DNA of 34,630 bases, from the NCBI GenBank assembly GCA_964589185.1, contig CAZPST010000001.1:1-34630 (forward strand). The letters run 5' to 3'. A program made the translations under genes and the position numbers. This DNA is from an uncultured Roseivirgaceae bacterium. Its GTDB lineage: Bacteria > Bacteroidota > Bacteroidia > Cytophagales > Cyclobacteriaceae. The notes under the pieces are model-generated. The model saw nothing but the letters and a program-made list of their open reading frames with translations. It searched no databases and was not told the origin of the DNA. Positions 4,587 through 32,580 of this stretch are shown piece by piece (position 1 is the first letter of the stretch; every line of letters begins with the position of its first letter).

Positions 4587-4590
4587 AGGT

Positions 4591-13230: not shown

Positions 13231-14757
13231 CTACTTATTTTTCAATTTCAACTCAAACAAGTCCTTTCGACGATCCTTGAGGTTACGCACACTACCAAAT
13301 TGATTCAGCTCCATCAGTAGATCTAAGTCCACATCGGCAATTAAGATCATTTCGGTATTTGGAGTAGCCTCGGCTTTTATGCCATTAGATGGAAATGCAA
13401 AGTCGCATGGCGTAAACACCATCGATTGGGCAAACTGAATGTCCATATTATGCACATTTGGCAAATTGCCCACACTGCCGGCAATAGCCACATAGCATTC
13501 ATTCTCTATAGCGCGTGCTTGCGCACAATAGCGTACTCTGGAATAACCATTTTGTGTGTCGGTAAGGAAAGGTACAAATAGAATATCCATTCCTTCATCG
13601 GCCAATAGACGACTGAGCTCGGGGAATTCCGAATCATAACAAATCAATATGCCAATGCGCCCACAGTCGGTATCAAAAGCCCGGAGCTGTGTGCCGCCTT
13701 CCATACCCCATATTTTTGACTCGTCAGGAGTCACATGCAGTTTTTCGTAACGCTCCACGCCACCGTCACGTTTGCACAGATACCCAACATTGTATAGCCT
13801 TCCATTATTGATCTCGGGCATGCTACCGGTGATGATATTGATATTGTAGCCAATAGCCAACTGCGCAAATTTTTCTACAATTTCAGTGGTGTGCTTGGCC
13901 AGTTCACGAATGGCGTCAGGTTCCGACAGGTGATTGTATTCGGCCATCAAAGGCGCATTGAAAAATTCAGGAAAGAGCGCGAAATCAGAGCGATAGCCCG
14001 ACACAGCATCTATGAAATATTCGGCATGTTGCATCAGATCGTCGAGACTCTTATAGGGTCGCATTTGCCATTGGATGAGTCCCAATCGCACAATTTTCTT
14101 CGTGATGGAGGGATTTTTACTCGGTGGCTCGTAGTAGATGTTGTCCCATTCCAGCAATACGGCATATTCATTTGATGCATCGTCTCCTTCGAGATAGCCT
14201 TTGAGCACGCGCACCGGGTGAAAATCATTGGAAATCTGAAAATCCAATACAGGATCATGAATCTCTTTCCGTTTCACCTGATCGATGTATTGCTTTGGCG
14301 TGAGATCTTCGGCGTATTTATGATAATTCGGAATTCGCCCTCCAAATACGATTCCTCTAAGGTTGAGCCGTTCGCACAGTTCTTTTCTATAGTCATAGAG
14401 ACGTCTGCCAAGCCGCAATCCGCGGAATTCAGTTTTGATAAATACGTCAATACCATAGAGCACGTCTCCATCGGCCGTGTGTGTAGAGAAGGAGTAGTTT
14501 CCTGTGATTTCTTTATACGTGTGTCCCACGTCGTACTTGGCGTAATCCACCACAATGGAAAGGGCACATCCGGCTATTTGATTATTCACTTTGATGACCA
14601 CCTGACCCTCTGGAAAAAGATCGATAAGCGACTGAATATGATACTCTTTCCAGTAGGCATTGGGCATAGATGCATATGCCTCTATCATGGCCGATTTTAA
14701 CTCAGCATAATCCTGAAGACTTAAATACGACAGCTCAATATTTTCGATTTCTTCCAT
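13231..14757 (-). CDS. Bifunctional GNAT N-acetyltransferase / carbon-nitrogen hydrolase (nitrilase superfamily) protein
   Basis: N-terminal GNAT motif A region (FRGLRLGRRLY). C-terminal nitrilase-superfamily Glu-Lys-Cys elements (FPEFF; YEKLHVTP; GILICYDSEFPE). Confidence 0.8.
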   Translation of the reverse strand: MEEIENIELSYLSLQDYAELKSAMIEAYASMPNAYWKEYHIQSLIDLFPEGQVVIKVNNQIAGCALSIVVDYAKYDVGHTYKEITGNYSFSTHTADGDVLYGIDVFIKTEFRGLRLGRRLYDYRKELCERLNLRGIVFGGRIPNYHKYAEDLTPKQYIDQVKRKEIHDPVLDFQISNDFHPVRVLKGYLEGDDASNEYAVLLEWDNIYYEPPSKNPSITKKIVRLGLIQWQMRPYKSLDDLMQHAEYFIDAVSGYRSDFALFPEFFNAPLMAEYNHLSEPDAIRELAKHTTEIVEKFAQLAIGYNINIITGSMPEINNGRLYNVGYLCKRDGGVERYEKLHVTPDESKIWGMEGGTQLRAFDTDCGRIGILICYDSEFPELSRLLADEGMDILFVPFLTDTQNGYSRVRYCAQARAIENECYVAIAGSVGNLPNVHNMDIQFAQSMVFTPCDFAFPSNGIKAEATPNTEMILIADVDLDLLMELNQFGSVRNLKDRRKDLFELKLKNK

Positions 14758-14908
14758 TTTCAGATTTGTAGCGGTTAGACAAGGTTATGGAGAATTGACT
14801 TCACTTGCCCCATTTATTGTGGTTTTTTGCCTAATTTGAAATACAAAGTCATACGCATGGTCTATTGGCTTGTAAGTGGTATTTTTCCGTTTTAAATTGA
14901 GCCTTACC

Positions 14909-15529
14909 GTGGCATTAGGAAGTAACCTCAAAAAACCAGTCAGAGAGAATAAACCCACAACCAAAGTGGTGGAAGCGCATGTGCGTCCTGTCCTACAGGC
15001 GCCCGATCTCGAATATACCCCTGATGTTGACGAAATAGATGAAGCGATAGAAGCCAGAGAGCTTATGTGTGTGTTTCGTGCCGGCACCACCGAATATGCT
15101 ATTCCCATTGCATTGGCAAAGGAAGTAGTGAAGATGAAGCGTTTAGCGCCCATTCCCCAGATGCCCAAACACATCATAGGATTGGCCAATGTGCGTGGCT
15201 CCATATACGGAGTGCTCGATCTACAGACTTTTTTTGGCAATGCATCAGAGGCAGCCGATCAGGGGGTATTTCTATTGGTATTGAATGACGACAAATACAA
15301 AATTTGTGTTTCCATTCCGAGTGTGCCGGATACGCTTTATGTGACCGAATCCATGAGAGAAACCAATGGTGCCACCCAGATCAAAACCATCAAGAAGAGA
15401 GAATTTGTACAGGGAATCATCAAAAAGAACGACCGGTTGATTATTCAGCTTAACATCAAAGAATTGATTGCCAGCCCAAGTTTTGTAAATGAGAAAGAAC
15501 AATCGGCCAATGGCCAAAAAGGACACTAA
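14909..15529 (+). CDS. cheW: CheW-like coupling protein with ~50-aa N-terminal extension (CheW-1)
   Basis: CheW domain ([22 protein letters not shown]...[17 protein letters not shown]...[22 protein letters not shown]). The GTG at 14909 is chosen because it yields M-ALGSNLKK, matching the N-terminus MALGRNLKK of the second CheW at 18812. The exact start is uncertain: the ORF opens at 14876. Confidence 0.75.
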
Positions 15530-15531
15530 TT

Positions 15532-18069
15532 ATGCTTAATAATTTCACCATCCGCAGAAAAATGATGTTGTTCATCTTGGGTGTGACTATCGTGATTTAC
15601 ATAGTTACCCTGGGATACATCAGTTTCAACCTTCGCCAAAATGCAATACAAGAGGCTAAAAATCTGGCTGACGCCTACGCCAGGCAAAAGGCATCTGAGA
15701 TTAAGGCAGTGCTCAATGAAGATATGGCCGTATCTCGTATGATGTCCATGGCCGTGACAGAATATACCGGATTACCCAAGGTGCTGCGCGATAGCCTTCG
15801 AAGAAAATTGCTGGTAAACGTACTAAAAGCATATCCTAAATATGATGCTACTTGGATGAGTTGGGAACTTACGGCTATTGATCCGAAGTGGGATAAAACA
15901 CACGGGCGCGAGCGTACGAATTTCTACATGCGCAATGGACAAGTACAGTCTTCTCAAGAACTAGCCAACCTGGAAGCGGATAATACGAGCGGAATCTACG
16001 TTGAGATGAAGCGAAGAGGATATGTGAAGGATGGTCACGAATTATTGTCTGAGCCCTATTGGTATGAAGATTATGACTACTCTACGGCTTCTGGAGATTC
16101 GCTGTTGGGAGTATCGCCCACAGCTTCTCATTTTCACAAAGGCAAGTTTGCAGGGGTGATAGGCACAGACATGACAGTGAAGTACTTTCAAGATATGTCT
16201 GAGGTGTCTTATAAGCGTGGATTTGCTTTTTTGGTTACAAATCAGGGAACCATCATTGCTCACAAAGACCTTGGCATGTTCAGCAAGCCCATTGATAGTA
16301 TGAGCATGATGAAGGGGCTTGATTTTGATTTGAAATCAGGAATAAAGAAAGGTGAAGTGACTCCATTTGTTACCTATGATGCCAGTTTTGGGGAGGATGT
16401 CTATGTCACGTTTGCGCCTATCAAGGCAGGGCGAACTGATACACCTTGGTCAGCCGGTATCATTGTGCCTGTGTCTGAAATCACCGAGACGTTCGACGGT
16501 ATATTTAAATGGACATTGATGGGGGGAGCCGCCGGATTGATCTTCCTGACGTTCGTAATTGCTCGATTGGCCAATGGCATCACCAATTCACTCGATCGCT
16601 CCAATGCTTTATTGAAGGAATTGGCAAAGGGTAATTTGGATACCTCCAAAAAACTCAGAGTAGAAGGGATAGATGAGCTTAGTCAAATCGCGCATTCGGT
16701 CAATACATTGATGGATGAGTTGAATAAAAAGGCGGAATTTTCCAGAAAAATAGGTGAGGGAAACTTGGTGGCAGATTTCCACAGCTCGGGTGAAAATGAC
16801 GTCTTGGGCGAATCACTCCTGCGCATGCGGGATAACCTGCGCGTGGTAATTGAAGAAACTAAAGAAGCTGTGCAGCAAGCCGGATTTGAAGGAAATCTCT
16901 CTGCACGAATGGATCCTGAAGGTAAAATGGGCGCATGGAAAGACCTTACAGACTCGATGAATAGTCTCTTGGCCTCCATTAGTACACCATTCAATTCCCT
17001 CAATACACTAGTAGATGCCATGGCCGAAGGAGATCTCACGGTACGGTATCGTGAAGACGCTAAAGGGGACATTTTGCAAATGGCCAATAACCTGAACAAA
17101 GCATTGGACAACCTCAATGAACTCTTGGGCGGAATTGTCACAAATGCTAACATCATAGGCGATTCGTCAATGGAAATGCTGGCTGCCAGTGAAGAGATGA
17201 ATACAAATACGGGTGAGATTGCATCAGCGATAGCACAAATGAGTAGTGGTGCGCAAAATCAAGTGAGCAAAGTGGATGAATCGTCCAATCTGGTGGAGAG
17301 TATTTTACGTTCGGCCAATGACATGGGGCATCAGGCCGAAGAGATCAACTCTGCAGCGCAAAAAGGAGCGGAGAGCTCAGACAAAGGACTCAAGATGGTC
17401 AATAAAGTGGGCTTTAGTATGAAAGATATTAGAGCCTTTGCCAATGACACCAACGAGTCCATCAAAGTGCTCACTGAGCGATCCAAAGAGATCACACGCG
17501 TATTGGGTATCATCACAGATATAGCTTCTCAAACGAACCTACTCGCACTAAATGCAGCTATTGAAGCTGCGCAAGCCGGTGATGCAGGTCGTGGATTTGC
17601 GGTAGTAGCCGAAGAAATTCGCAAACTAGCAGAAGACTCGCGCACGTCAGCACGCGAAATCGAAAAGCTCGTGACGGATGTGCAAAACGATACCCAAACC
17701 GCAGCTAAGATGATCGAGGTGATGAGTGATAGTATTAAAGGGGGAGAAACAGCGTCCGTGGATGCATCTGAAGCATTTAAGGAGATTGCCGCATCATCTA
17801 TGCAAACGCTGCAACTCTCAGAGCAAATACTGAATGCGGCCAAAGGCCAAATGGAAAGCATCAAGAATGTGGTGAGCATCACCGAAGGTATCGTGGTGAT
17901 TGCAGAGCAAACAGCCGCCGGAACGGAGGAGGTTGCCAGTTCGGCTACCGAACTATCAGCCGGTATGGAAAACTACACTCAGCGCTCCGAACGAGTGACG
18001 GAAATTGCCACAGAATTGAAAGAACGAGTGGGTAAATTCAAACTGTCAGCAAAACGCGATAGCCAATGA
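15532..18069 (+). CDS. Methyl-accepting chemotaxis protein: TM - dCache-like periplasmic domain - TM - four HAMP units - MA signalling domain
   Basis: TM1 is aa ~12-32. A ~290-aa periplasmic region carries the Cache-like LSEPYWYED motif. TM2 is aa ~326-346. Four HAMP-like units each contain a G(N/D)L motif (AKGNLD, GEGNLV, FEGNLS, AEGDLT). Signalling hairpin is [39 protein letters not shown]. Candidate methylation site is [11 protein letters not shown]. Confidence 0.9.
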
Positions 18070-18812
18070 GTATAGTGGCCATCATCAACCAAAAGGGCGG
18101 TACCGGCAAAACGACCACTACGATTAACCTCGGCAGTGCCTTGGCGAAAAAGTGGAAGAAGGTAACGTTGGTAGACCTAGATCCGCAGGGAAATCTGAGC
18201 TATAGCTTGGGTATCAATGACTCGGAAGGTTCGATGGCCGATGTGTTGCTGGGCGACAAGCAATTAGCTGAAATCCTCATCGATCAGGAAGGTATGCGGG
18301 TGGCACCTGCCAATAATCAACTTGCCGATGCAGAACTGTCCCTAGCTGCGTCTGTCAACAGGGAGCATGTGCTTAAGGATGTGCTCAAGGGACAAAAAGA
18401 CCAAGATTTCGTTCTCATCGATTGTCCGCCTTCGCTTTCGGTACTTACGCTGAATGCCCTGCTGGCCGCTGACCAAGTGATCATACCGATGCAAATGGAG
18501 GTGTTAAGTCTTCAGGGACTAGACCAAATAGTGAATACAATAAATCGTGTGAAGTCGGCTTTCAAAAAGAAACTGAAAATTGCGGGTATTTTGCCTGTCA
18601 TGGTTGACAATCGTAGGAAACTGAGCCAAGAAGTGCACGACTACATTGCAGACAATTATGCCATCCCAATTTTCAAAAGTCAGATACGTGCCAATGTAAA
18701 AGCATCAGAGGCACCCTCGTTTGGCAAGAGTGTCATTGCGTATCAACCACGCTCCGCCAGTGCGCAAGATTATCTTCTTTTCGCAGATGAATTTCTAACC
18801 ATGAATGACTGA
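18066..18812 (+). CDS. ParA/MinD-family ATPase embedded in the che operon (ParC/PpfA-like)
   Basis: Deviant Walker A with signature lysine ([12 protein letters not shown]). DLDPQGN. Walker B-like FVLIDCPPS. 248 aa with no HTH extension. ATGA overlap with the MCP stop. Confidence 0.85.
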
Positions 18813-19528
18813 TGGCACTAGGTAGAAATTTGAAAAAGCAATCGCTCATTCCTGATAAGGAAGATGAAAAGAAAGACACGCCCGTAGCTAAGCCGGTGAA
18901 AGTGGAAAAGAAGAAATTGATTGGCACTAAAGAAAAGTCAAAGCGAGAGCGAAAATCACCGTCATCCTTCACCGGAAGCCTGTTTCATTACATCACAGAG
19001 CAGACATTGGCGCATCGGTCAGCCGTGCGCGAAAAGTACCAATTGGAGATACAGGCACTTGCCGGCAAGTCGGTTCAGTTGATCGTATTTGATGCAGGGA
19101 GTGAGGAATTTGCCGTGGATATCTCATCTGTAAAAGAAGTGATCAGCACGCCCACGATCGCCAAAGTACCCGGCATGCCTACCTACTTCAAAGGCATGAT
19201 TAAGGTGCGAAAGAATACCGTGCTGGTGATGGATTTGGGTGAGAAATTGCGCATCTCTACAGCGGATGAATTTCCGTACACATTGCTTTTGCGCAGTACC
19301 AAGCAGCCGCTCGGCTTGCTCCTGAGAGAACTTCCCCGCACGTTCAAAGTAGACGGTGGGCGAATCACAGGATCGCTACAGGCATTGGAACGTACCTCAA
19401 GAGATGAAATATTTGTCAAGGGACTCGTCAGTTTGAATGAGAAATTGGTTTTCTACCTCGACATAGAGGAATTGGTAAACAGTGACAAGGCAGTAGTGGT
19501 ACCGGATCAATTGGCCAAAAACGAATGA
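18812..19528 (+). CDS. CheW-domain protein with ~90-aa Lys-rich N-terminal extension (ParP-like, CheW-2)
   Basis: C-terminal CheW domain (LIVFDAGSEEFAVDISSVKEVI...YFKGMIKVRKNTVLVMDL...VKGLVSLNEKLVFYLDIEELV). The N-terminus [10 protein letters not shown] is followed by a K/E-rich linker (EDEKKDTPVAKPVKVEKKKLIGTKEKSKRERK). TGATG overlap with the ParA-like gene. Confidence 0.8.
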   Translation: MALGRNLKKQSLIPDKEDEKKDTPVAKPVKVEKKKLIGTKEKSKRERKSPSSFTGSLFHYITEQTLAHRSAVREKYQLEIQALAGKSVQLIVFDAGSEEFAVDISSVKEVISTPTIAKVPGMPTYFKGMIKVRKNTVLVMDLGEKLRISTADEFPYTLLLRSTKQPLGLLLRELPRTFKVDGGRITGSLQALERTSRDEIFVKGLVSLNEKLVFYLDIEELVNSDKAVVVPDQLAKNE

Positions 19529-20562
19529 GCATGAGCAAAAGACGTCTCCAAATATTGGTCGTTGACGATTCTGCATTCATGCGGTTATTGCTCTCTGATT
19601 TGATCTCAGAGGATGATGACCTAGAGGTGGCTGGTTCAGCTACCAATGGCATGGAGGCAGCCGCCAAGGTGGCTGAGTTATCACCAGACGTAGTGCTGCT
19701 CGATCTCAATATGGGAGATTATGATGGGCTGTTTGCCGTGAAAAAAATCATGGCCGAAAAGCCTACACCCATTTTGATTTTGAGCTCAGTGGGCAACACA
19801 GACCTGAATCCCATCTTTGAAGCGTTGAAATTCGGAGCGGTGGACTATATGAACAAGCCCGATCGCAACAACTTCAAAATGCGGACGATGCATTCGGAAC
19901 TGATGAGCAAAATTAAAGCCGCCGCTCGTGCTAAGCCCCGCACACTCCCGGTTACATCTGCACCAAAAAAGGCACTCAGTCGCAAAAAGAAGTCAAATTA
20001 TGATTTACTGGTCATTGGAGCGTCTACAGGAGGGCCTTCAGCCATCGAACAAATCATCACTGACCTACCGGCAGATTTTAATTTACCGGTCATTGTATGC
20101 CAGCACATGCCTACACTTTTCATTACGCCATTTGTCAACAGACTCAATTCGCTCACTGAACTCAATGTGGTCACTGCAGCCAAGTCCATGACGCCAGTGG
20201 CCGGAACGATCATGGTGTGCCCCGGACATGCCAACACGGTGCTGCGCAAATCGGGGAGTCGGTTCGTTGTGGAATTTGACGAGACTGTCTATCGCGAATA
20301 CAACAATCCATCAATCAATGCATTGATGCGAAGTGTGGCCGAAACCTACGGTGAAAAAGCCATAGGTGTGATCCTTACGGGCATGGGCAAAGATGGCGTA
20401 GATGGATTGAAGGCCATTAAAGAAACCGGAGGATACACGATTGCTCAAGACAAGGAGAGTTGTATCATTTACGGCATGCCGAAGGTGGCCGTGGAGCAGG
20501 ATGCGGTGCGTATGTCGCTGGATATCAAAGAAATAGGGGACTATATTGTGAATAATCTCTGA
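19525..20562 (+). CDS. cheB: CheB protein-glutamate methylesterase (REC + methylesterase)
   Basis: REC domain (ILVVDDS...VVLLDLNM...NKP). Methylesterase triad contexts GASTGGP (Ser), CQHMP (His), TGMGKDG (Asp). Confidence 0.9.
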   Translation: MSMSKRRLQILVVDDSAFMRLLLSDLISEDDDLEVAGSATNGMEAAAKVAELSPDVVLLDLNMGDYDGLFAVKKIMAEKPTPILILSSVGNTDLNPIFEALKFGAVDYMNKPDRNNFKMRTMHSELMSKIKAAARAKPRTLPVTSAPKKALSRKKKSNYDLLVIGASTGGPSAIEQIITDLPADFNLPVIVCQHMPTLFITPFVNRLNSLTELNVVTAAKSMTPVAGTIMVCPGHANTVLRKSGSRFVVEFDETVYREYNNPSINALMRSVAETYGEKAIGVILTGMGKDGVDGLKAIKETGGYTIAQDKESCIIYGMPKVAVEQDAVRMSLDIKEIGDYIVNNL

Positions 20563-22259
20563 TGGATTCAAAAGAAGCCGAATATCGCCATCTGTTTCTC
20601 ATGGAAGCCCATGAGAACTACGAGAAGCTCAATAACCTGTTTATTGAGTTAGAAAGAGATCCGTCTAGTCGCAATGCCATCAATGGGATTTTCAGGATTG
20701 TGCACACGCTCAAGGGCAATGCCATGCTCATGGGGTTTGATAAAATTGCCAATCTCACACATACCATGGAGGATGTGTTTGGCGCTTTGAGTGAGAAGAA
20801 AATACTCTTGACAGCCGAACTAATAGAAATACTCTTCCGATGCAACGACAAGTTGGGCGAATTGATAAAATCAATCGAATCAGGAGACAAAGTGAGCTAT
20901 TTAGGCGTGCGCACCAAGCTCTCCGTTTATCTGAAAAATGCCTTGGAAGGGGAAGAAAGTCCTAAAGAAGAGCAGCCACAACCCGAATTTGAAGAAGTCA
21001 TCGTAGAGGAAGCTCCTGCAGAAGATACAGCCGGAATCAGTTTTTCGGATGCTGTGCAGATTCCTATTCGTAAAATGGACGATTTGCTTAATCTGGTAGG
21101 TGAATTAGTCATTGAGCGTGACAGACTGATTGCCGTGTATGGTGCAGAGGGCAAGAGCACATTGGAGTTTGAAGGTTTGAAGCGCATTTCATCCAATCTG
21201 CATTACAGCATAATGAACATTCGGATGGTGCAGATGGGCTTTATGTTCAATAAATTTCATCGAATCCTAAGAGATGCTGCAACCTCTGCAAAGAAGGAAG
21301 TGAAGCTAGTGCTGAAAGGCACAGAGGTCGAAATAGACCGCAATATTCTCAAAATCATCAGCGACTCACTCATTCATTTGGTACGAAACTCGGTAAGCCA
21401 CGGCATTGAGTCAGACGCAGATCGACAGCAGGCCAATAAGCCAAAGGAGGGAACTGTGACGTTGGAAGCCCGACATGAGAAGGACAATGTAGTGCTTACG
21501 GTAACGGATGATGGTCGTGGCATTGATACCCAGAAGATTCGTAAAAAGGTAGTAGAGAAAAAAATGGTGTCGGCAGAAGTAGCCGAAAAGCTGCGTGATC
21601 CGGAAATCATCCGCTACATCTTCGAGCCGGGCTTTTCCAGTGCAGATGCCGTGAGTGAGCTATCGGGAAGAGGCGTGGGAATGGATGTGGTGAAAAGAGC
21701 CGTGGAGTCAATAGGAGGGCAGGTTTTGGTAGATACGGTGCTCGGTCAAGGGACATCTATTCACTTGGTTTTACCATCATCATTGGCACTCAAAGGCGCG
21801 CTTTTGTTTGAAATCGATGAGCAGGAATATGCCATTGCATTGGCGTATATTCAATCCGTCATTTACCTCACCAAGAAGGATATTCACAAGATCAGCAATG
21901 GACTGATGATCAATCACCAAGACGAAACGATCTCCATCGTGTTCTTAAAGGATTTGTTAGAAACACACGACTTGTCTGCCGTGCATGAAGGTAATTTACT
22001 TCATACAGGATATAATAACACACCTGACGATGAGCAATTGAGCGTGATACTCACGACCCATTCCGGTCGCCAGCTGGGGTTAGTCGTGGATCGATTGCAG
22101 CGACAAAAGGAAGTGATTGAGAAAAAATTACCCAAACCACTCGATGGAAGTAAGCTCCTAAGTGGTACTACCATTTTAGGTTCGGGCAATGTGTGTCCTG
22201 TGGTGGATGTGGCATCCGTCATGGACACGCTGTACTTATCAGGCACCCAAGCCGACTGA
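20562..22259 (+). CDS. cheA: CheA histidine kinase (P1-linker-P3-P4-P5; no recognisable P2)
   Basis: Hpt with phospho-His context FRIVHTLKGNA (His48, nt 20703-20705). Acidic linker EGEESPKEEQPQPEFEEVIVEEAPAED. P3 is IPIRKMDDLLNLVGELVIERDRL. P4 N-box is LIHLVRNSVSHGIE, with G-boxes DDGRGID and GRGVGMDVV. C-terminal CheW-like P5. Confidence 0.9.
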   Translation: MDSKEAEYRHLFLMEAHENYEKLNNLFIELERDPSSRNAINGIFRIVHTLKGNAMLMGFDKIANLTHTMEDVFGALSEKKILLTAELIEILFRCNDKLGELIKSIESGDKVSYLGVRTKLSVYLKNALEGEESPKEEQPQPEFEEVIVEEAPAEDTAGISFSDAVQIPIRKMDDLLNLVGELVIERDRLIAVYGAEGKSTLEFEGLKRISSNLHYSIMNIRMVQMGFMFNKFHRILRDAATSAKKEVKLVLKGTEVEIDRNILKIISDSLIHLVRNSVSHGIESDADRQQANKPKEGTVTLEARHEKDNVVLTVTDDGRGIDTQKIRKKVVEKKMVSAEVAEKLRDPEIIRYIFEPGFSSADAVSELSGRGVGMDVVKRAVESIGGQVLVDTVLGQGTSIHLVLPSSLALKGALLFEIDEQEYAIALAYIQSVIYLTKKDIHKISNGLMINHQDETISIVFLKDLLETHDLSAVHEGNLLHTGYNNTPDDEQLSVILTTHSGRQLGLVVDRLQRQKEVIEKKLPKPLDGSKLLSGTTILGSGNVCPVVDVASVMDTLYLSGTQAD

Positions 22260-22262
22260 CCT

Positions 22263-23102
22263 ATGGCGTCCATGGCACCCGATATGATCAGTGATGAAGA
22301 GCTTGCAGCACTCATGCAGGCTATAAACAATCGTTACGGGTTGGATTTCACTAACTATGAGCGCACGTCATTGAAGCGGGGCATAGTCCGGCTGATGATG
22401 AAGCATAAGATGGACACCATCATTGAGTTGTGGTCCAAAGTACTCAAAGATCAAGAGTTCTTTCTGAGTGCCATTGACGATCTGCTCGTAAACCTTACAG
22501 AGCTCTTCCGTAATCCTGACGTATGGATCAAGCTGCGCGATCAAATACTGCCTGATTTTAGAGGGAAAGGTCTGAAAATCTGGCATGCCGGGTGCTCCAC
22601 AGGAGAGGAGGTATACACCATGGCCATTGTACTTGAGGTCACGGGATTGCTGCCAAATGCCCGCTTGACCGCCACAGACCTCAGTTCTACGGCACTGCGA
22701 AAAGCTGTAAAAGGACATTATCCACTGGAGGTATTGAAGCAGTACCTCGTGCCTTTTTTGAAATTTTTCCCCAATCGCAGGCTTGAAGATTACTTTGATT
22801 ATTTCGACAAGCATGCCTTGATCAAATCAAAATACCAGAACAACGTACTTTTCAAAAAGCACAACTTGGTGACTGATCCGATGTATGACAAATTCGATAT
22901 CGTTTTTTGTCGAAATGTGATGATTTACTTTGACGATAAACTAAAGAAACGGGTGCTGGATATGCTCTACAATGGCCTCAAAGAAGGGGGCTATTTGATA
23001 ATAGGATATTATGACATTATGCCGGATTATGGCAAAACATTGTTCGATCTGTATGATGTAAAAACCCGGATTTATAAGAAAAAAGTGAGTGTTAATACCT
23101 AA
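22263..23102 (+). CDS. cheR: CheR protein-glutamate O-methyltransferase
   Basis: N-terminal CheR helical domain (NRYGLDFTNYERTSLKRGI). SAM-binding motif IWHAGCSTGEEVYTMA. FCRNVMIYFD. Confidence 0.9.
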   Translation: MASMAPDMISDEELAALMQAINNRYGLDFTNYERTSLKRGIVRLMMKHKMDTIIELWSKVLKDQEFFLSAIDDLLVNLTELFRNPDVWIKLRDQILPDFRGKGLKIWHAGCSTGEEVYTMAIVLEVTGLLPNARLTATDLSSTALRKAVKGHYPLEVLKQYLVPFLKFFPNRRLEDYFDYFDKHALIKSKYQNNVLFKKHNLVTDPMYDKFDIVFCRNVMIYFDDKLKKRVLDMLYNGLKEGGYLIIGYYDIMPDYGKTLFDLYDVKTRIYKKKVSVNT

Positions 23103-23115
23103 AAAGGAAAGCTAT

Positions 23116-23475
23116 ATGCGCATACTAATAGTTGATGATTCGAGCTATATCAGATCTAGATTGAAGGTGACATTGGAAAATAGCGGTTTTACTGTGATAG
23201 GAATGGCCGAAAATGGAGAGCAGGCCATTGACATGGCCATGGATTTAGGACCCGATATTATTACATTGGATAATATCCTGCCGGACATGACAGGTGTAGA
23301 CGTGCTGAAGGCGCTTAAAGATCACGAAGGTCTTACCAAAATCATCATGATAAGTGCCGTAGGACAGCAATCAGCCATCGCCGAAGGATTAGCCAATGGG
23401 GCAAGTGAGTACATCGTGAAGCCCTTTCAGGACGAAGAATTATTGCAAATCATCAAAAATATCAGCAAAGACTAG
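23116..23475 (+). CDS. cheY: CheY-like single-domain response regulator (CheY-1)
   Basis: ATG at 23116 (MRILIVDDSS). Phospho-acceptor context ITLDNILPDMTG. Ser/Thr (ISAVG). CheY-type aromatic switch and Lys (SEYIVKPF). Confidence 0.85.
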   Translation: MRILIVDDSSYIRSRLKVTLENSGFTVIGMAENGEQAIDMAMDLGPDIITLDNILPDMTGVDVLKALKDHEGLTKIIMISAVGQQSAIAEGLANGASEYIVKPFQDEELLQIIKNISKD

Positions 23476-23555
23476 TGACGATTAAGTAGAAACCCTTAGA
23501 AGATTATCGTCATGGTTGGCTATCTTGTATCTTATTAATCACCAACATAATCCGT

Positions 23556-24152
23556 ATGATCTCCAGCTTAAATGAAAACGAAATGAAGGTGGCCAGCAAA
23601 TTGATATTTGATGGTCTTTCTATGGCTAAATCGTCCATGGAGCAAATCCTGCAAAGCCCAATTACTATCCAAAAAATAGATTATAATGATGAAGCTGGCA
23701 TCCATCGCTTTTATGATGGCGGAGAAGGGGATGTGCACCTCATTAAAACTGAATTAATGGGGGAATTAAAGGGCGTCAGTCATTTGATTTTTTCGGCTGA
23801 TGAAGTGGCAAAATTGTACAAAGCGTGCTTGCCCGATCACGTTACTTTTGATGATTCTAATGAGAGTGCCTTGATGAAATTGGGCTTTCTCACAGAGATA
23901 GACAACATGGTGGCAGGAGCGGTCATTACAGAGTTTTCTAATTTCCTTGGCGTAGAGATATATGGTATGGTACCTTCGCTCACAGTAATGCATGCCAATG
24001 AAGTGAATGCCTATTTAGATGCTGAATCCACCGATATGGATTCTGTGATCCATTTCAAAGCTGTTTTTCACGGCAAAGAATTGGATATTTCCCCTGATTT
24101 CGTCTGGGTCTTCCATGATAAATTTGTGGACAAAATCAAGGGACTAGTATAG
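23556..24152 (+). CDS. CheC-family (CheC/FliY/CheX superfamily) CheY-P phosphatase-like protein with one intact and one degenerate site
   Basis: The second half carries a full E-x2-N-x22-P motif (E114-I-D-N117 ... P140 in LTEIDNMVAGAVITEFSNFLGVEIYGMVP). The first half keeps the spacing (E9-x2-V12-x22-P35) but Asn is replaced by Val. The 198-aa size fits CheC. Confidence 0.6.
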   Translation: MISSLNENEMKVASKLIFDGLSMAKSSMEQILQSPITIQKIDYNDEAGIHRFYDGGEGDVHLIKTELMGELKGVSHLIFSADEVAKLYKACLPDHVTFDDSNESALMKLGFLTEIDNMVAGAVITEFSNFLGVEIYGMVPSLTVMHANEVNAYLDAESTDMDSVIHFKAVFHGKELDISPDFVWVFHDKFVDKIKGLV

Positions 24153-24193
24153 TACGATATTGAATTGAAAGAAACTTAACTGAGAATATAATT

Positions 24194-24556
24194 ATGAGTA
24201 AGAGTGTGTTGATTGTGGACGATTCCATCTACATGAGATCATTGATAAAGTCGGCTCTTACGGGTGCCGGCTATAATGTGGTAGGTGAAGCGCAAAATGG
24301 TGAACAGGCGATAGATCTGGCAATAGAATTACAGCCCGACCTAATCACCCTTGACAATATTTTGCCCGATATGATGGGGTTTGAGATTCTTAAAGTCCTA
24401 AAAGATGAAGGCGTAGAATCTAAAGTCATTATGGTAAGTGCCGTAGGGCAGCAGACAGTGGTCAATAAGGGACTGTCGTTAGGAGCCTCAGAGTACATTG
24501 TGAAACCTTTTACAGAGGAAGATTTGGTTTCTGTAGTAAATAGGGTAATTTCCTGA
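24194..24556 (+). CDS. cheY: CheY-like single-domain response regulator (CheY-2), close paralogue of CheY-1
   Basis: VLIVDDS; ITLDNILPDMMG; VSAVGQQ; GASEYIVKPF. It shares long identical stretches with CheY-1 (NGEQAID, ITLDNILPDM, SAVGQQ, GASEYIVKPF). Confidence 0.85.
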   Translation: MSKSVLIVDDSIYMRSLIKSALTGAGYNVVGEAQNGEQAIDLAIELQPDLITLDNILPDMMGFEILKVLKDEGVESKVIMVSAVGQQTVVNKGLSLGASEYIVKPFTEEDLVSVVNRVIS

Positions 24557-24578
24557 TGTAAGCGCGTCACACAAACGA

Positions 24579-27185
24579 ATGATCAAAAAATTATACAACC
24601 TGCCGATCCGACAGAAGTTTGCGGTTATTATTTTACCGCTTATTCTTATCGTCTTGGTGTTTGATTATCTTCAAATCAAGCATCATTACGTGGATTTTAA
24701 TGATTCTAAGCGTCTGAATAAGGCCATCACAGTAGGAATTGAAATCAACCATGTAGTACACGAACTTCAGAAAGAACGCAGTATTTCAACAGGTTTTCTT
24801 TCCAATCAAGGAGCCACTTTCAGCGATGAGTTAAACGAACAGCGATCCAAGACAGATAGTACGCTGAATCAATACTATACCGAGATAAGTAGCAAAGCGC
24901 TCAAAGATTTAGTAGGCATTCATCAAGAAGATATTGATCAGTTAAATACCTGGTTTGATAAACTCAAAGTGCTTCGAGCCAATATTGATGCGCACGACAT
25001 CACGTCCGAACTGTCTATCGAGAGCTATTCAGATATCAATAACATGGCACTTAATACTGTCATTCGATTGATTGATGAAACCCGAGACAAGCAAGTGGCA
25101 CAGCAAGTGCACGCTATCATCTATTTTCTGAAAGCCAAAGAGAATGCGAGTATCGAACGAGCCATTGGCACCCAAGCCTTTTCCTTAAGTCATTTGGATT
25201 TTGGGCTATACAACAGATTCACCAGGCTTGTAGCCAATCAAAACTCGTTTTTTGAAGCGTTTCAAATTATTGCGGATGAGGAATCAAATGAGCAATATTC
25301 CACCATCTTGTCAGGTGATGCCGTCTCTGAAGTGAAGCGGATGCGGACGGTTTTGTTTCAAAATGATTCATTAAGTGAAAATGCCGCACATTGGTACGAT
25401 GTGAGCACGGAGCAAATAAATCTTCTTAAAAAACTTGAAGACGCAATGTCTGATCGGATACAATCTCGTACAGAAGATATTGCGATCAGTTCCATGCAAA
25501 AATTCTGGTCATTCTTGGTCTTGGATATTTTGATTGGCATTCTCACATTCTGGTTGATGACCACACTAGCGACCAACTTGCTCAAGAACGTCAAAATACT
25601 TGATGATTTTACAAAGAAAATTTCATCCGGTGATCTCACGCAGAAAGTAGTCATTGACTCGCGGGACGAATTAGGCCAGTATGCCAAAACGTTCAATCAG
25701 ATGGTGTTGGAGATTCGCAAGTCGCACTATGCGTTGCGCCAGCAGCGTGACAAAGCAAAATTTCTTTACGAGAACATCTATCGCGTCTCCATGGTTGTGT
25801 TCGAAAATATCCAGCAGGGTATCTTCTTGTTGGACAAAGAATTTAAAATCTCAAAGTTTCACTCGCGAGCGATGAAGGGCATCTTTGCCAATGACCGCAT
25901 TGCCGGTGAGAATTTCGCCAACTTCATGCGTCCACTCATTTTGCCACGCGAGTTAGAGGCACTTGAGATGTTTATGCGGCACTTGTTCAATGAGGACATG
26001 GATGAGGACGTGGTGAATCAGTTGAATCCGATTGATCAAGTGAAAATCCACACCGAACAAAACGGCGTGGTGGCCACCAAGTACATCCGCGTGGATTTCA
26101 CACGCGTGTATCGTCAGGATAAAATCCAGCATGTAATGGTGACCGTGTCTGACGAGACTGAATCTATCCTATTGCAGCAGCATCTGGATGAAGCAGAGAA
26201 GAAGAAGCAGCAAGAAACCGAGCGTGTACTCAGCATCCTCAAAATCGACCCATCCATTTTGCGTGGTTTCCTTCACAATTCGCGAAAAATGCTGAAGAGT
26301 ATTTCGCAGCGATATGAGCAGCACGACAAAGGTGATTTCGATGAATTGCTCAGTTTTACCATGGACATTATTCATAACCTAAAAGGAAATGCGGTAGTGA
26401 TAGGCATGGATTTGATGTCGAATAAATTCCATGAAATTGAGGAGACCATCACCCAATTGAAATCGCGTCAACTTCGTGGAAAGGACTTTTTGGCTGTGTT
26501 GTATGAAATAGATGAGGCCGATCGAATGATTGCCGATATTTCAGAAATGCTCTACAAGATTGTCAGCATTTACAAGAAATTTCCTGCTGAGGGTCATTCC
26601 GTATCCAATATAATGGTGGTGGACGCACTTGAACGTGGGGCAGAGCTCATCAGCAAAGAGGTAGGGAAAAATGTGGAGGTCAACTTCAAAAACGATAAGA
26701 ACCTCTCGATACCTGAAAAATACGTGGAGCCATTCAAGGATGTCATGATCCAACTCATTCGAAATTCGATCATTCACGGGATCGAAACGCCAAGTGCACG
26801 AATCACGGCCGGTAAGGTGATCAAAGGTGAAATTGGTATTGAATTGGACAAAACAGCTTCCGATGATTTGGTGATTCGCTACCACGATGATGGAGCCGGT
26901 TTGGATTTGCAAGAGATCAAAGTAAAAGCATTAGATAGGGGTATTGTGATGGGCTTTGAGCTAGAGAAGATGTCGGATCAAGAGCTGGTAGAATTGATTT
27001 TCTTGGAAGGATTCTCTACATCTGAAAAATCAAATAAGCATGCCGGTCGTGGACAAGGGATGCACCTCGTGAAATCAATTGTAGCAGACCATGGTGGCAC
27101 ATACGCATTGACCTACGAAAAAGGAAAGTCATTTGGTATTACCATTACATTCCCAAGTACAGGTGAAAAGCTGGAGCAAGAATGA
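24579..27185 (+). CDS. Membrane sensor kinase: TM - NIT (nitrate/nitrite-sensing-type) domain - TM - HAMP - PAS-like region - Hpt - CheA-type HATPase; no P3 or P5
   Basis: TM1 is aa ~13-30. The NIT-type periplasmic helical domain (aa ~45-295) has the hallmark HELQKERSISTGFLS plus ENASIERAIG. TM2 is aa ~309-331. HAMP is aa ~332-385 (SSGDLTQKVVIDSRDELGQYAKTFNQM). PAS-like region is aa ~395-530. Hpt is aa ~555-650 with CheA-P1-like IIHNLKGNA (His599, nt 26373-26375). The catalytic domain is co-linear with the CheA in this window (MIQLIRNSIIHGIE; HDDGAGLD; GRGQGMHLVKSIVADHGG). Confidence 0.8.
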   Translation: MIKKLYNLPIRQKFAVIILPLILIVLVFDYLQIKHHYVDFNDSKRLNKAITVGIEINHVVHELQKERSISTGFLSNQGATFSDELNEQRSKTDSTLNQYYTEISSKALKDLVGIHQEDIDQLNTWFDKLKVLRANIDAHDITSELSIESYSDINNMALNTVIRLIDETRDKQVAQQVHAIIYFLKAKENASIERAIGTQAFSLSHLDFGLYNRFTRLVANQNSFFEAFQIIADEESNEQYSTILSGDAVSEVKRMRTVLFQNDSLSENAAHWYDVSTEQINLLKKLEDAMSDRIQSRTEDIAISSMQKFWSFLVLDILIGILTFWLMTTLATNLLKNVKILDDFTKKISSGDLTQKVVIDSRDELGQYAKTFNQMVLEIRKSHYALRQQRDKAKFLYENIYRVSMVVFENIQQGIFLLDKEFKISKFHSRAMKGIFANDRIAGENFANFMRPLILPRELEALEMFMRHLFNEDMDEDVVNQLNPIDQVKIHTEQNGVVATKYIRVDFTRVYRQDKIQHVMVTVSDETESILLQQHLDEAEKKKQQETERVLSILKIDPSILRGFLHNSRKMLKSISQRYEQHDKGDFDELLSFTMDIIHNLKGNAVVIGMDLMSNKFHEIEETITQLKSRQLRGKDFLAVLYEIDEADRMIADISEMLYKIVSIYKKFPAEGHSVSNIMVVDALERGAELISKEVGKNVEVNFKNDKNLSIPEKYVEPFKDVMIQLIRNSIIHGIETPSARITAGKVIKGEIGIELDKTASDDLVIRYHDDGAGLDLQEIKVKALDRGIVMGFELEKMSDQELVELIFLEGFSTSEKSNKHAGRGQGMHLVKSIVADHGGTYALTYEKGKSFGITITFPSTGEKLEQE

Positions 27186-27556
27186 AAAAGCGCCTTCTCA
27201 TAGTAGATGACTCCTCTATCATGAGGAGAACCATAGAAAAGAATCTAGCCGAGTATGATTTAGAGATCATCGGTCAGGCATCAAATGGCAAAGAGGCATT
27301 GGAGATGGTGAAAAAGGAAATGCCCGATGTGATTACACTGGATATCACCATGCCTGAAATGAACGGTATAGAGTGTTTGGAAGGAATCATGAAAATTCAT
27401 CCTACGTGTAAGGTGATGATCATCACGGCACTCTCGGATAAGTTGACCGGTTTGATAGCCTTAGATAGGGGAGCTAGGGGTTTTTTGTACAAGCCTGTGA
27501 GTGCGGAGGATTTGGAGCGATCGTTCAATAAATTATTGAAGCGAAATGGAGAGTAG
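27182..27556 (+). CDS. cheY: CheY-like single-domain response regulator (CheY-3)
   Basis: LLIVDDSS; canonical ITLDITMPEMNG; ITALS; GFLYKPV. ATGA overlap with the kinase stop. Confidence 0.85.
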   Translation: MKKRLLIVDDSSIMRRTIEKNLAEYDLEIIGQASNGKEALEMVKKEMPDVITLDITMPEMNGIECLEGIMKIHPTCKVMIITALSDKLTGLIALDRGARGFLYKPVSAEDLERSFNKLLKRNGE

Positions 27557-28013
27557 AAAGGAGGAGTTCGAAGCTACATGCAATTTGTTCATCAATTCGG
27601 TGAATAATTATTTCAAGCATCTCACTGAGATTGATTCCAATATTAAGGTGCCATACCTCAAAGAATCTCAGGGATTGGTGCTCAAGGATTATACAGGCAT
27701 GATTGCCATTTCTGGCAGCCGAAAGGGCTTTGTATATATCTCTGCCAATCGAGACATGTTTGGTGATTTGATCCACATGTTTATCGGCATTGAAGATCCG
27801 TCTGACGAGGATATTTTGGACATGGCCGGTGAAATATCCAATGTGGTGGCAGGTAATGTGCGTGCCAATTTGGGTGCGAATTTTATGATTTCCGTACCCA
27901 TTGTATTTGAAGGTATGCCTTCCGAATTGAAAATACCGGAAGATATTTCAATTTACGTGATACCGATCCAATGGAACAACCATGAGGCTTTTGTTGTATT
28001 AGGATTAGAATAG
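27546..28013 (+). CDS. cheX: CheX-like CheY-P phosphatase
   Basis: 155 aa with a single D-x3-E-x2-N site (D92-MAG-E96-IS-N99 in LDMAGEISNVVAGNV) followed by P118. Size and single-site layout fit CheX rather than CheC. 11-nt overlap with CheY-3. Confidence 0.65.
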   Translation: MESRKEEFEATCNLFINSVNNYFKHLTEIDSNIKVPYLKESQGLVLKDYTGMIAISGSRKGFVYISANRDMFGDLIHMFIGIEDPSDEDILDMAGEISNVVAGNVRANLGANFMISVPIVFEGMPSELKIPEDISIYVIPIQWNNHEAFVVLGLE

Positions 28014-28019
28014 GCGAAG

Positions 28020-28823
28020 ATGATAGAGCAGGGAAATTCCAGAAAGACAGATGCGAAGGCTAATTGGCTACTCAATCTTGATAAGATTGAGGATAAGACG
28101 CGTCGCAATTATTTCTCAGGCTTACCACAGGAGCACACATTGTTGGATTTCTTCACCTATGCTTTTGTGATCAATAAACCCAAAGGCCGTGTGGGGGGCG
28201 ATGGATTTTGGTTGCATGAAAACGGAGATGATGTCTATCTAGCCTTGTTCACCTGCGTGGGCGAGGGGCATTTGGCGCACATGATGATCCGCATTTATAT
28301 GAATGCGCTCAAGAAAATGGTTAATGAATACGCCATTGATTATCCCGGATCCATCCTGCAGTTTGTGCACAAAGAGGTTCAGTCTCGATTTAATAGCAAA
28401 AACAACATCCTATTGAATACCAATGCCAATATTGGTATTGTCAAACTCAATGCAATCACCAAATCGATGGAATTTGCTGGAGCTAATATGAATTTGATTC
28501 AAGTGGCGCGTGATGGTGTGCGCATTATCGAAGGAGAGAAATATCAGGTAGGAGATACAGGTAAAGAGAAGCCAACATACAGTTCCAATTCGCTAAGCGA
28601 TACAGATACTTCGTCGTTCTATTTGTGCAGTTCTGGCATTTTTAATCTTATTGGAGGGTCTGCGTTCAAGAAGTTGTCGCAGAACGAGCTCACAGATCAT
28701 CTCAAGGCTATTCAGAGGTATCCTGTATCAAGCCAAAAAGAGCATGTAGAGGAGTTCATGGCCGATTGGACAGGATCAAACAGGCAGAATGATGACATTC
28801 TGGTGATTGGTTTTACGCCTTGA
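28020..28823 (+). CDS. SpoIIE/RsbU-type PP2C-like domain protein, stand-alone, with a partly degenerate metal-binding set
   Basis: SpoIIE-family landmarks are present: KGRVGGDGFWL (GGDxY-type, D61) and C-terminal NDDILVIGF (D258/D259). The expected D-x-x-G-x-G Asp reads FTCVGEGH (T78). The expected (T/S)DG Asp reads CSSGIF (S205). Confidence 0.6.
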   Translation: MIEQGNSRKTDAKANWLLNLDKIEDKTRRNYFSGLPQEHTLLDFFTYAFVINKPKGRVGGDGFWLHENGDDVYLALFTCVGEGHLAHMMIRIYMNALKKMVNEYAIDYPGSILQFVHKEVQSRFNSKNNILLNTNANIGIVKLNAITKSMEFAGANMNLIQVARDGVRIIEGEKYQVGDTGKEKPTYSSNSLSDTDTSSFYLCSSGIFNLIGGSAFKKLSQNELTDHLKAIQRYPVSSQKEHVEEFMADWTGSNRQNDDILVIGFTP

Positions 28824-28877
28824 CATTTTTTCACATTTCCAGATTTTCTTTGAATCTGGCTCTACAATTATTTTCTT

Positions 28878-30506
<1,629 letters not shown>

Positions 30507-31617: not shown

Positions 31618-32115
31618 TTAATTCCTTCGGCGCTGTAAATCCTGATTGCCTTGCTGGCGCTCCTGCATTTGTTGTCGGCGTTGCTGCTGCTCACGCAAGC
31701 GATTGAGGATCATTACTTTGAAGTCTGATTCAGCTTTACGCAGACTCAACATCTGCCGATTGTCTATGACTTGAAGCAAACGCTCAGAGTAGGTGCGTTC
31801 CAATTCGATGGTACGTTCTTTCACCTGCATTCCCAGCTCCAGCAAGCGCTTATTGTCATCATCTGAGGCCGTTTCCGGATTGTGACGGTTTCTTGCTTGC
31901 GTGAATTCCCTTCGCACTTCTTCTTGCCTACGGCTGTACTCATTATAAATTGGCCAAAATTTCTCAGCCTGCGCAGGCGTAAGCTGCAGCCGCTCTGTGA
32001 TAAGGGCAATTTTAGCTGCCTCTATCTGTTCTCTCGGATTTCGTTCGCCCTTGGGTTGACTTACTGCCGCCAAACTTGCGACAATCAGGGCTACAAATAG
32101 GGTGTACTTTTTCAT
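31618..32115 (-). CDS. Periplasmic Spy/CpxP-like helical protein
   Basis: The ATG at 32113-32115 gives a signal peptide (MKKYTLFVALIVASLAAVSQ). LTPAQAEKFWPIYNEY and Arg/Gln/Glu-rich helices are typical of Spy/CpxP-like periplasmic proteins found after Bacteroidota ECF sigma/anti-sigma pairs. The longer ORF (to 32220) would overlap the upstream gene. Confidence 0.55.
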   Translation of the reverse strand: MKKYTLFVALIVASLAAVSQPKGERNPREQIEAAKIALITERLQLTPAQAEKFWPIYNEYSRRQEEVRREFTQARNRHNPETASDDDNKRLLELGMQVKERTIELERTYSERLLQVIDNRQMLSLRKAESDFKVMILNRLREQQQRRQQMQERQQGNQDLQRRRN

Positions 32116-32119
32116 GGTA

Positions 32120-32548: not shown

Positions 32549-32580
32549 TGCAGCATTTGATTTAAAAAGGCGGCTATAGT

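Follow-up and report, generated by a model that had tools for sequence, protein, structure and literature searches.

A candidate two-module chemosensory pathway with a self-sensing CheA-like kinase and a SiaA-like terminal protein in a Cytophagales bacterium

In the Wsp system of Pseudomonas aeruginosa and the Che3/CrsR-CrsA system of Shewanella, chemosensory (Che)-type sensing leads to an enzymatic or partner-switch output, and a GGDEF or PP2C domain is fused to the receiver. The biochemistry of another partner switch, SiaA/SiaC of P. aeruginosa, which works through threonine phosphorylation, has been described (PMC7647112, PMC8457831); its STAS-like switch protein, SiaC, controls a neighbouring enzyme (PMC8457831). 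Positioning of chemosensory arrays offers a further precedent: in Vibrio, the ATPase ParC has ParP as its partner (PMC5706961), and a treatment of basic N-terminal partner peptides as a general principle lists a CheW protein as the partner of ParC (PMC10241942). Here we analysed a 34,630-nucleotide stretch of DNA (the window; positions 1 to 34,630 of contig CAZPST010000001.1, assembly GCA_964589185.1) from an uncultured Roseivirgaceae bacterium, which carries a cluster of fourteen che-like genes at 14909-28823. On balance, we lean towards reading this cluster as a composite, non-flagellar chemosensory pathway of two modules whose output would be a PP2C/SiaC-type switch and not a motor.

Genes were called from the DNA, domains were assigned by Pfam, NCBIfam and PDB sequence searches, and the junctions were checked base by base. 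An earlier reading of the DNA letters, made without database searches (the sequence-only reading), had listed fourteen consecutive plus-strand open reading frames (ORFs), and all of them were found at the positions it gave. The searches also confirmed the order that it had proposed (CheW, methyl-accepting chemotaxis protein (MCP), ParA-like ATPase, CheW, CheB, CheA, CheR, CheY, CheC-like, CheY, NIT kinase, CheY, CheX, PP2C-like) and with it the complete adaptation pair of CheB and CheR, three CheY proteins, two phosphatases of the CheC family and, in last place, a gene for a PP2C-fold protein. The genes are as follows:

14909..15529, plus strand: CheW1, 206 amino acids (aa), GTG start, N-terminal MALGSNLKK (Pfam CheW, 8.9e-23)
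15532..18069, plus strand: MCP (Pfam MCPsignal, 6.4e-37; HAMP_2, HAMP and a weak dCache_1 match)
18066..18812, plus strand: ParA/MinD-type ATPase with the deviant Walker A motif KGGTGKTT (AAA_31, 1.9e-53)
18812..19528, plus strand: CheW2, ParP-like, N-terminal MALGRNLKK and a Lys-rich disordered linker (CheW, 9.7e-23, residues 89-225)
19525..20562, plus strand: CheB methylesterase (CheB_methylest, 3.3e-57) with a receiver (REC) domain (Response_reg, 5e-21)
20562..22259, plus strand: CheA, 565 aa, with Hpt, H-kinase_dim, HATPase_c and CheW domains, corresponding to P1, P3, P4 and P5
22263..23102, plus strand: CheR methyltransferase (CheR, 3.5e-41; CheR_N, 3e-9)
23116..23475, plus strand: CheY1, single-domain receiver and last gene of module 1, probably starting at the ATG at 23116 (Response_reg, 8.9e-28)
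23556..24152, plus strand: CheC-like protein, first gene of module 2 (NCBIfam CheC, 7.8e-6; weak Pfam CheC match, 0.0097)
24194..24556, plus strand: CheY2, single-domain receiver (Response_reg, 3.3e-28)
24579..27185, plus strand: NIT sensor kinase (NIT, 2e-49; HAMP; Hpt, 9.5e-4; HATPase_c)
27182..27556, plus strand: CheY3 receiver, whose gene has an ATGA overlap with the NIT kinase gene, indicating translational coupling (Response_reg, 1.5e-27)
27546..28013, plus strand: CheX phosphatase (Pfam CheX, 1.6e-19)
28020..28823, plus strand: SiaA-like PP2C-fold protein (no Pfam match; NCBIfam SiaA, 1.7e-28; PDB 6k4e, 1.8e-15)

The packing of these genes is as tight as had been reported. The letters themselves bear out the ATGA overlaps at 18066-18069, 19525-19528 and 27182-27185 and the TGATG overlaps at 18810-18814 and 20560-20564, two gaps measure 80 nucleotides (nt; 23476-23555) and 41 nt (24153-24193), and the remaining junctions are at most 22 nt long or overlapping. 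One earlier junction reading had to be corrected, as the CheY3 and CheX genes overlap by 11 nt.

For the comparison with relatives, 76 loci were collected by scanning a single genome for each GTDB species. Gene counts were obtained by tblastn of the 14 window proteins against all loci and, where given out of 60, refer to the species with enough flanking sequence. All but one of the 76 loci come from Cytophagales-type genomes, namely Ekhidna, Marinoscillum and metagenome-assembled genomes (MAGs) of Cyclobacteriaceae/Roseivirgaceae. More than 300 homologues of the NIT kinase were found, the nearest named ones being those of Ekhidna (about 71% identity) and Marinoscillum (57%), and an exact look-up found no identical gene on record. 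By sequence, the host is a Cytophagales bacterium close to these two genera. As a side observation, the exception (L078, PBTY01000042.1) was assigned to 'Rickettsiales bacterium NP5' in binning, but its cluster is of the Marinoscillum type, and its CheX and CheY2 are 80% and 81% identical to those of the window; this contig is probably mis-binned.

The complete 14-gene order recurs among unrelated flanks in Ekhidna lutea, Marinoscillum furvescens and an 8.1-Mb Cyclobacteriaceae MAG, and the arrangement is therefore not a product of chance. The synteny and co-occurrence that the sequence-only reading had proposed as a check thus show strong co-conservation of the genes across relatives. CheX is present in all 60 loci and the CheC-like gene in 58, and CheA lies within 10 kb of the NIT-kinase orthologue in 59 of the 60 species. 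As candidates for an output of the alternative-cellular-function type, the loci contain the PP2C-fold gene (56 of 60) and SiaC-family genes (16 of 76). Flagellar, gld, spr or other motility genes were found neither in the window nor in any locus with listed gene content; domain searches of the window flanks likewise agree with the earlier remark that no motility apparatus is in view. Ekhidna, Marinoscillum and Reichenbachiella belong to the family Reichenbachiellaceae, described as 'motile by gliding', and Bacteroidetes are said to be generally non-flagellated (PMC6767994), which fits the gliding, Bacteroidota-type context assumed before.

The cluster had been read as one composite 14-gene pathway. 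Its composition and co-conservation bear this out, but it is not one indivisible unit: comparison of the loci divides it into two separable modules, a Che core (module 1, 14909-23475) and a set of genes for the CheC-like protein, CheY2, NIT kinase, CheY3, CheX and the PP2C-fold protein (module 2, 23556-28823), and the boundary between them is the position of the 80-nt gap. A Che core of the window's type is present in 50 of the 60 loci, in one of them (L039) inverted and located downstream. Nine loci have an unrelated, CheD-containing Che core instead (about 30% identity) with the order CheY, CheA, CheW, MCP, CheR, small HisKA kinase, CheD, CheB, and the CheC-like gene of module 2 then adjoins this core. 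In a further locus (L052), only the NIT kinase, CheY, CheX and PP2C genes are found, without Che core, CheC-like gene or CheY2. Since the core is swapped, inverted or absent in some species and the half from CheC-like to PP2C stays constant, module 2 is the constant unit.

Three observations nevertheless argue that the modules work together: their linkage survives rearrangement, PP2C and SiaC genes can be inserted into the Che-core half (PP2C in L028), and CheY1 and CheY2, which are paralogues with 57% identity, stand on either side of the boundary. As part of the reading that we lean towards, the two modules would be held together by selection. The unrelated core, seen in L056 (1-8944) and also in L057, L060, L063-L065, L071, L074 and L079, encodes a CheA of 713 aa. 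It also includes a 282-aa HisKA/HATPase kinase, and a small orthodox kinase of this kind within a che operon is unusual.

In the kinase of module 2, the phospho-acceptor site H599-N-L-K-G-N-A carries the HxxKG signature of a CheA P1 domain; 40 homologues share H599, L601, K602 and N604 without exception, and almost always N600, G603 and A605 too. The ATP-binding part is of the CheA P4 type (NCBIfam CheA_Halo, 5.6e-34, residues 680-861), with conserved N (HGIE), G1 (DDGxGL) and G2 (GRGQG) boxes in alignments of 8 and 40 homologues. Searches for the other CheA domains gave no H-kinase_dim (P3) match, the distance from P1 to the N box being about 40 residues shorter than in CheA, and no CheW-domain (P5) match, the protein stopping 8 residues past HATPase_c; P2 is absent as well. 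An AlphaFold2 model (pLDDT 77) shows a transmembrane helix, an all-alpha NIT domain, a second transmembrane helix, HAMP and a PAS-like alpha/beta domain (414-525), followed by a transmitter that consists of a helical bundle bearing H599, a single helix and P4, with neither a P3 hairpin nor a P5 domain. Since it lies between the two transmembrane helices, the NIT domain is predicted to be periplasmic.

Two CheA-type kinases had been counted in the cluster. The second one does have the CheA-type P1 and P4, but without P2, P3 and P5 it cannot be a receptor-coupled CheA, and it was rejected as a second true CheA on the failure to find P3 and P5. Being itself a transmembrane sensor that lacks P3 and P5, it does not depend on receptors, and its domain matches and model describe it as a self-sensing kinase with CheA-type chemistry.

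The terminal protein is closest to SiaA in the NCBIfam, PDB and Foldseek searches. Its AlphaFold2 model (pLDDT 84) finds the PP2C domain of SiaA (6k4e) as the best Foldseek match, with TM-scores of 0.83/0.90. In SiaA, the strictly conserved active-site residues are D457, D474, G477, D600, G601 and D653 (PMC7647112). The 6k4e alignment places D61, T78, G81, S205, G206 and D258 at these positions in the window protein, and N137 at the auxiliary D534. We take the D474 and D600 equivalents to be direct ligands of the PP2C catalytic metals. In an alignment of 70 orthologues, those of Marinoscillum and Cyclobacteriaceae keep the motifs FDCMGHG, GADxG, (S/T)DG and DD and match Pfam SpoIIE, whereas the whole Ekhidna-like clade, to which the window belongs, shows FTCVGEG, NANxG and SSG as coordinated replacements and is still 56-84% conserved. 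The earlier PP2C-like call thus holds for the fold, and in the lineage of the window two of the four strictly conserved metal-binding Asp residues are lost. An active phosphatase was therefore rejected for this lineage because the metal ligands are missing, and the replacement of two of the four Asp residues makes the window protein, judged from its alignment, probably a conserved and catalytically inactive pseudophosphatase.

In this respect it resembles RssB, which is among the Foldseek matches: both have a PP2C fold with lost catalytic residues, and a non-catalytic role under receiver control is proposed here. RssB, however, is a REC/PP2C fusion with a known client (RpoS/ClpXP), and here the receiver is separate. 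The likeness to SiaABCD of P. aeruginosa lies in the SiaA-type PP2C domain and in the SiaC genes of relatives; unlike in that system, the PP2C stands alone without a periplasmic or HAMP part and would be under CheY/CheX control, no SiaB or SiaD was seen, and the equivalents of D474, D600 and D534 in the window lineage are T, S and N.

SiaC-family (PF09345) genes occur in or beside the cluster in three arrangements. In Ekhidna the SiaC gene lies about 6 kb downstream of the cluster, in seven Marinoscillum or related species it forms part of the operon, with the MCP gene before it and the ParA gene after it, and in two further loci (L061 and L047) it is found about 0.6 and 2.6 kb downstream of the PP2C gene, respectively. 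All linked SiaC proteins keep the motif FNT(S/A)SSKC, matching the T68 site of P. aeruginosa SiaC (PMC7647112). The association in relatives points to a partner-switch output, as far as gene neighbourhood and motif can indicate. Two neighbours of the E. lutea SiaC gene, encoding a PAS protein and a 300-aa protein, were considered as partners of the cluster and rejected, as they are not conserved with it.

In each of the receivers CheY1, CheY2 and CheY3, the acidic pocket is preserved along with the phospho-Asp, the S/T position and the Lys (DD, D, S and K in CheY1), and CheY2 orthologues are 70-88% identical. CheX has an intact active-site motif E96-x2-N99. Of the two CheC sites, the CheC-like protein lacks the first (KVAS) and keeps the second (E114-x2-N117-x22-P140), and it aligns with CheC (1xkr) and FliY (4hyn) at the second-site helix. 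The E-x2-N phosphatase motif is thus present in both proteins.

Module 1 contains a complete Che pathway core, with MCP, CheW, CheA and CheY all above the Pfam gathering thresholds and with CheR and a REC-bearing CheB for methylation-dependent adaptation. The MCP consists of a first transmembrane helix, a periplasmic dCache-like domain, a second transmembrane helix, two HAMP domains and a signalling domain of roughly 44 heptads. Its best PDB match is TM1143 of Thermotoga maritima (2ch7, 2.6e-23), and the alignment to this 44-heptad (44H) receptor has one 7-residue deficit in the N-arm, so that '44H-like' is an estimate and not a class. CheA has the phospho-His motif HTLKG and no P2; it matches T. 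maritima CheA (1b3q) with 4e-74 and is nearer to the T. maritima and haloarchaeal CheAs than to that of E. coli. In its P1/P3/P4/P5 CheA, 44H-like MCP, CheC/CheX, CheB and CheR the locus resembles F1-type systems (Thermotoga, Bacillus, haloarchaea). It differs from them in that neither kinase has a P2 domain, the core lacks CheD and CheV, and there is no flagellar context.

The ParA-like ATPase (PDB matches to ParA/Soj down to 9e-54) and the second CheW had been listed as separate parts, and this separation did not hold up: they form a co-varying pair. The ATPase gene is present in 42 of the 50 loci with the window's type of core. In all 45 loci with a ParA-like gene the downstream CheW carries the peptide MALGxNLKK, and among the eight loci without ParA the peptide is lost in six and degenerate in two (MTAGRNLKKK). 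Read from the GTG at 14909, CheW1 begins with MALGSNLKK, matching the N-terminal peptide of CheW2. The arrangement matches that of ParC/ParP in Vibrio and PpfA/TlpT in Rhodobacter sphaeroides: the che operon encodes a ParA/MinD ATPase, here with a deviant Walker A motif, and the very next gene encodes a partner that combines a C-terminal CheW-like domain with a basic, disordered N-terminus. The differences are the other phylum, the lack of a flagellar context and of a known HubP-type polar anchor, and the presence of the peptide on CheW1 as well. On the strength of the co-variation and the precedents above, we read genes 3 and 4 as what looks like an array-positioning pair; their physical interaction we infer from sequence and analogy. 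The CheW2 linker (18851-18970, residues 14-53) is extremely Lys-rich and of variable length, and the protein ranges from 223 to 330 aa across species. Binding of this linker to DNA or to the membrane is conceivable and would matter for the choice between nucleoid (PpfA-like) and pole (ParC-like) positioning.

For the phosphotransfer routes, the ligand, the coupling of CheY to PP2C, the SiaC target and the cellular output, we infer the following scheme. The transmembrane dCache MCP would form a receptor array with the two CheWs and the P2-less CheA, CheR and CheB would supply adaptation, and CheY1 would be the receiver of module 1. The ParA/MinD-type ATPase may position or partition this array by binding the basic MALGxNLKK peptide on CheW2 and probably also that on CheW1. 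In module 2, the membrane kinase would sense a periplasmic ligand, presumably nitrate or nitrite, through its NIT domain and dimerise via its transmembrane and HAMP segments, which would substitute for P3. Its P4 domain is expected to autophosphorylate H599 of P1, from which CheY3, and possibly CheY2 as well, would receive the phosphate. The CheYs would be reset by CheX and by the CheC-like protein with its single site, and the phosphorylated CheY pool would act upon the SiaA-like PP2C-fold protein. In most relatives this protein is a canonical phosphatase, likely with a SiaC-type (DUF1987) threonine phosphoprotein as substrate, and the partner switch would control another enzyme or regulator. 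In the Ekhidna-like lineage, the PP2C is probably a non-catalytic binder or adaptor, as in RssB. The proposed path from Che-type sensing to an enzymatic or partner-switch output instead of a motor resembles, by analogy, Wsp and Che3/CrsR-CrsA; it differs from both in the free-standing receivers, the separate PP2C and the second, non-CheA kinase feeding in.

Several observations weigh against this scheme. SiaC, a SiaB-like kinase, a STAS protein and a diguanylate cyclase were all absent from the window in tblastn and Pfam searches, so that neither a cognate SiaC nor a SiaB is encoded there; SiaB was not identified among the related loci either, and 60 of the 76 relatives have no SiaC gene in the 20 kb that were sampled. 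With SiaC, SiaB and a cyclase absent from the window, the SiaC link is indirect for this organism. Moreover, a Sia-like phosphatase output cannot work with a window PP2C that lacks the equivalents of D474 and D600. Co-transcription of the genes finds no backing in scans of 14500-29100, which gave 34 sigma-70 promoters against 29 expected from shuffles and 14 intrinsic terminators against 11 in shuffled sequence, nor in a scan for the Bacteroidota -7 motif TAnnTTTG, with 19 copies against 24 expected; as all of these stand at chance level, we make no claim on the transcription unit. The Che core also has F1-like traits (44H-like MCP, CheC together with CheX, a CheA like those of T. maritima and haloarchaea), and a full CheB/CheR set with an array-positioning ATPase would be expected of true gradient sensing for motility.

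The last point leads to true gliding chemotaxis, in which CheY-phosphate would act on the gliding machinery linked to the type IX secretion system (T9SS), for instance on reversal or adhesin speed, with PP2C and SiaC as accessories. The family of the hosts is described as gliding, CheB/CheR, a transmembrane MCP, two CheWs and ParA positioning are typical of temporal gradient sensing, and three free-standing CheYs with dedicated phosphatases are found in motility systems too. Even so, we regard this explanation, though a serious rival, as rather unlikely, because neither the window nor the loci with listed gene content have gld, spr or other motility genes in or beside the cluster, the conserved terminal genes are of enzyme and regulator types (PP2C, SiaC), no target of CheY in the gliding motor is known and, to our knowledge, model gliders such as Flavobacterium johnsoniae have no Che genes. 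The F1-like traits listed above would suit an ordinary chemotaxis operon of the flagellar (F) class in a host with flagella encoded elsewhere. This we hold to be very improbable: the related cultured genera are described as gliding and Bacteroidetes as generally non-flagellated, the window and the loci with listed gene content lack flagellar genes, and the conserved output genes are not related to a motor.

A different objection is that the Che pathway and the cassette of NIT kinase, CheY, CheX and PP2C are merely neighbours that act independently and without cross-talk. The cassette indeed occurs without a nearby Che core in L052, in a paralogous copy (L083) and in Reichenbachiella (L080), Spirochaetia (L081) and Caldithrix (L084), it adjoins two unrelated Che cores, and 80 nt separate the modules. 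However, the NIT-kinase orthologue stays within 10 kb of CheA in nearly every species despite inversion, core replacement and different flanks, PP2C (L028) and SiaC (L075 and six others) have been inserted in the Che-core half, the CheY1/CheY2 paralogues lie on opposite sides of the boundary and the CheC-like gene is paired with the CheD-containing core where that core is present, all of which makes independence improbable to us. Alternatively, PP2C and SiaC could serve as input or feedback, a PP2C-controlled SiaC-type protein binding the receptor or array and modulating its activity, much like the STAS-chemoreceptor links proposed for Campylobacterota. DUF1987 proteins have been proposed as modulators of 'adjacent proteins' (PMC8457831), and one hypothesis in the literature connects PP2C/STAS with chemoreceptors (PMC9239204); in seven loci the SiaC gene directly follows the MCP gene and precedes ParA, and the MCP of L075 contains a PAS domain. 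But the PP2C gene keeps its link with the kinase, CheY and CheX genes in loci that have no MCP in the vicinity (L052, L083), and a SiaC-MCP contact would be hypothetical, so that we give this possibility still less credence than independence. We therefore keep to the composite two-module pathway with a PP2C/SiaC-type output as the explanation we favour, by a modest degree of belief.

The kinase itself belongs to a wider family. A search with its P1-P4 part against 1.84 billion representatives gave 278 matches at E <=1e-30; among the best 150 of them, nearly all stop at P4, and the N-terminal parts vary greatly in size. Members of the family (representatives P0121-P0269, loci L080-L084) carry only the name 'ATP-binding protein' in their sources or are named for the sensor domain. 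Ten members that were scanned have PilJ-N, Reg_prop/Y_Y_Y or HAMP domains or no recognised domain, and another is named as a GAF-domain protein. Six distant members were placed in their genomic context, where a REC gene adjoins the kinase in all six and a CheX gene in five:

L080, Reichenbachiella: kinase, REC, CheX
L081, Spirochaetia: REC, CheX, kinase, Guanylate_cyc
L082, metagenome contig, same protein cluster as a Cyclobacteriaceae MAG protein: kinase, REC
L083, same genome as L028: kinase, REC, CheX, SpoIIE-type PP2C
L084, Caldithrix: kinase, REC, CheX
L052, the sixth member: NIT kinase, CheY, CheX, PP2C

On the evidence of these gene orders, the kinase/REC/CheX cassette is general beyond the cluster studied here, with examples in Bacteroidota and in MAGs of Spirochaetia and Caldithrix. 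A gene fragment after CheX in L084 was considered as a PP2C and rejected, as it is not PP2C-like. The paralogous cassette in L083 (4001-7803) has a canonical SpoIIE and is followed by a TPR protein and an extracytoplasmic function (ECF) sigma/FecR pair. Literature searches on P5-less CheA-like sensor kinases found no description of such a cassette.

The flanks of the cluster in the window consist of housekeeping and polysaccharide genes. The T9SS C-terminal sorting domain noticed before was recovered as Por_Secre_tail on the amylase at 1386-4586, but the 'SusE/F-like' call for the 439-aa ORF at 37-1356 received no Pfam or NCBIfam match. The remaining features of note are:

1386-7360: starch-utilisation set of a 1066-aa CBM48 alpha-amylase (with the T9SS sorting domain), an esterase and a cyclomaltodextrinase
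13231-14757, minus strand: 508-aa fusion of a GNAT acetyltransferase and a carbon-nitrogen hydrolase, directly upstream of the cluster on the opposite strand
31618-33120, minus strand: ECF sigma factor, a 142-aa ORF without match and a periplasmic LTXXQ/Metal_resist protein

The last of these looks like an envelope-stress unit; pyrG lies between it and the Che cluster, and no link to the cluster is evident.

Every part of the cluster has a known relative, and within the searchable literature the new elements are their combination, the P1-P4 kinase cassette and the pseudo-PP2C state. Searches of the literature on Che systems in Bacteroidetes, Cytophagales and Ekhidna found nothing relevant, and we know of no Che genes in the usual gliding models of the phylum. 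Tentatively, and with clearly less confidence than in the two-module reading as such, we propose that the cassette of P1+P4 kinase, CheY and CheX, sometimes with a PP2C or a cyclase, of which our searches found no description, has in the gliding Reichenbachiellaceae been wired to a ParA-positioned array, and that both modules control a SiaC switch and thereby surface behaviour or gliding.

These findings bear on more than one locus. They expose a large and poorly annotated kinase family that reuses the CheA P1 and P4 domains without receptor coupling, which broadens the uses of CheA-type catalysis and of CheX. The occurrence of a canonical PP2C versus a conserved pseudo-PP2C within one pathway provides a natural comparison, and the ATPase and its CheW offer a clean case of co-variation for the recognition of ParA partner peptides. 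As two type strains that can be cultured, Ekhidna lutea DSM 19307 and Marinoscillum furvescens DSM 4134, have the cluster, the question of how gliding Bacteroidota bias their behaviour in chemical gradients comes within reach of genetics. If the proposed wiring to surface behaviour or gliding is true, no chemosensory pathway would have been described before this one in bacteria that glide by the T9SS.

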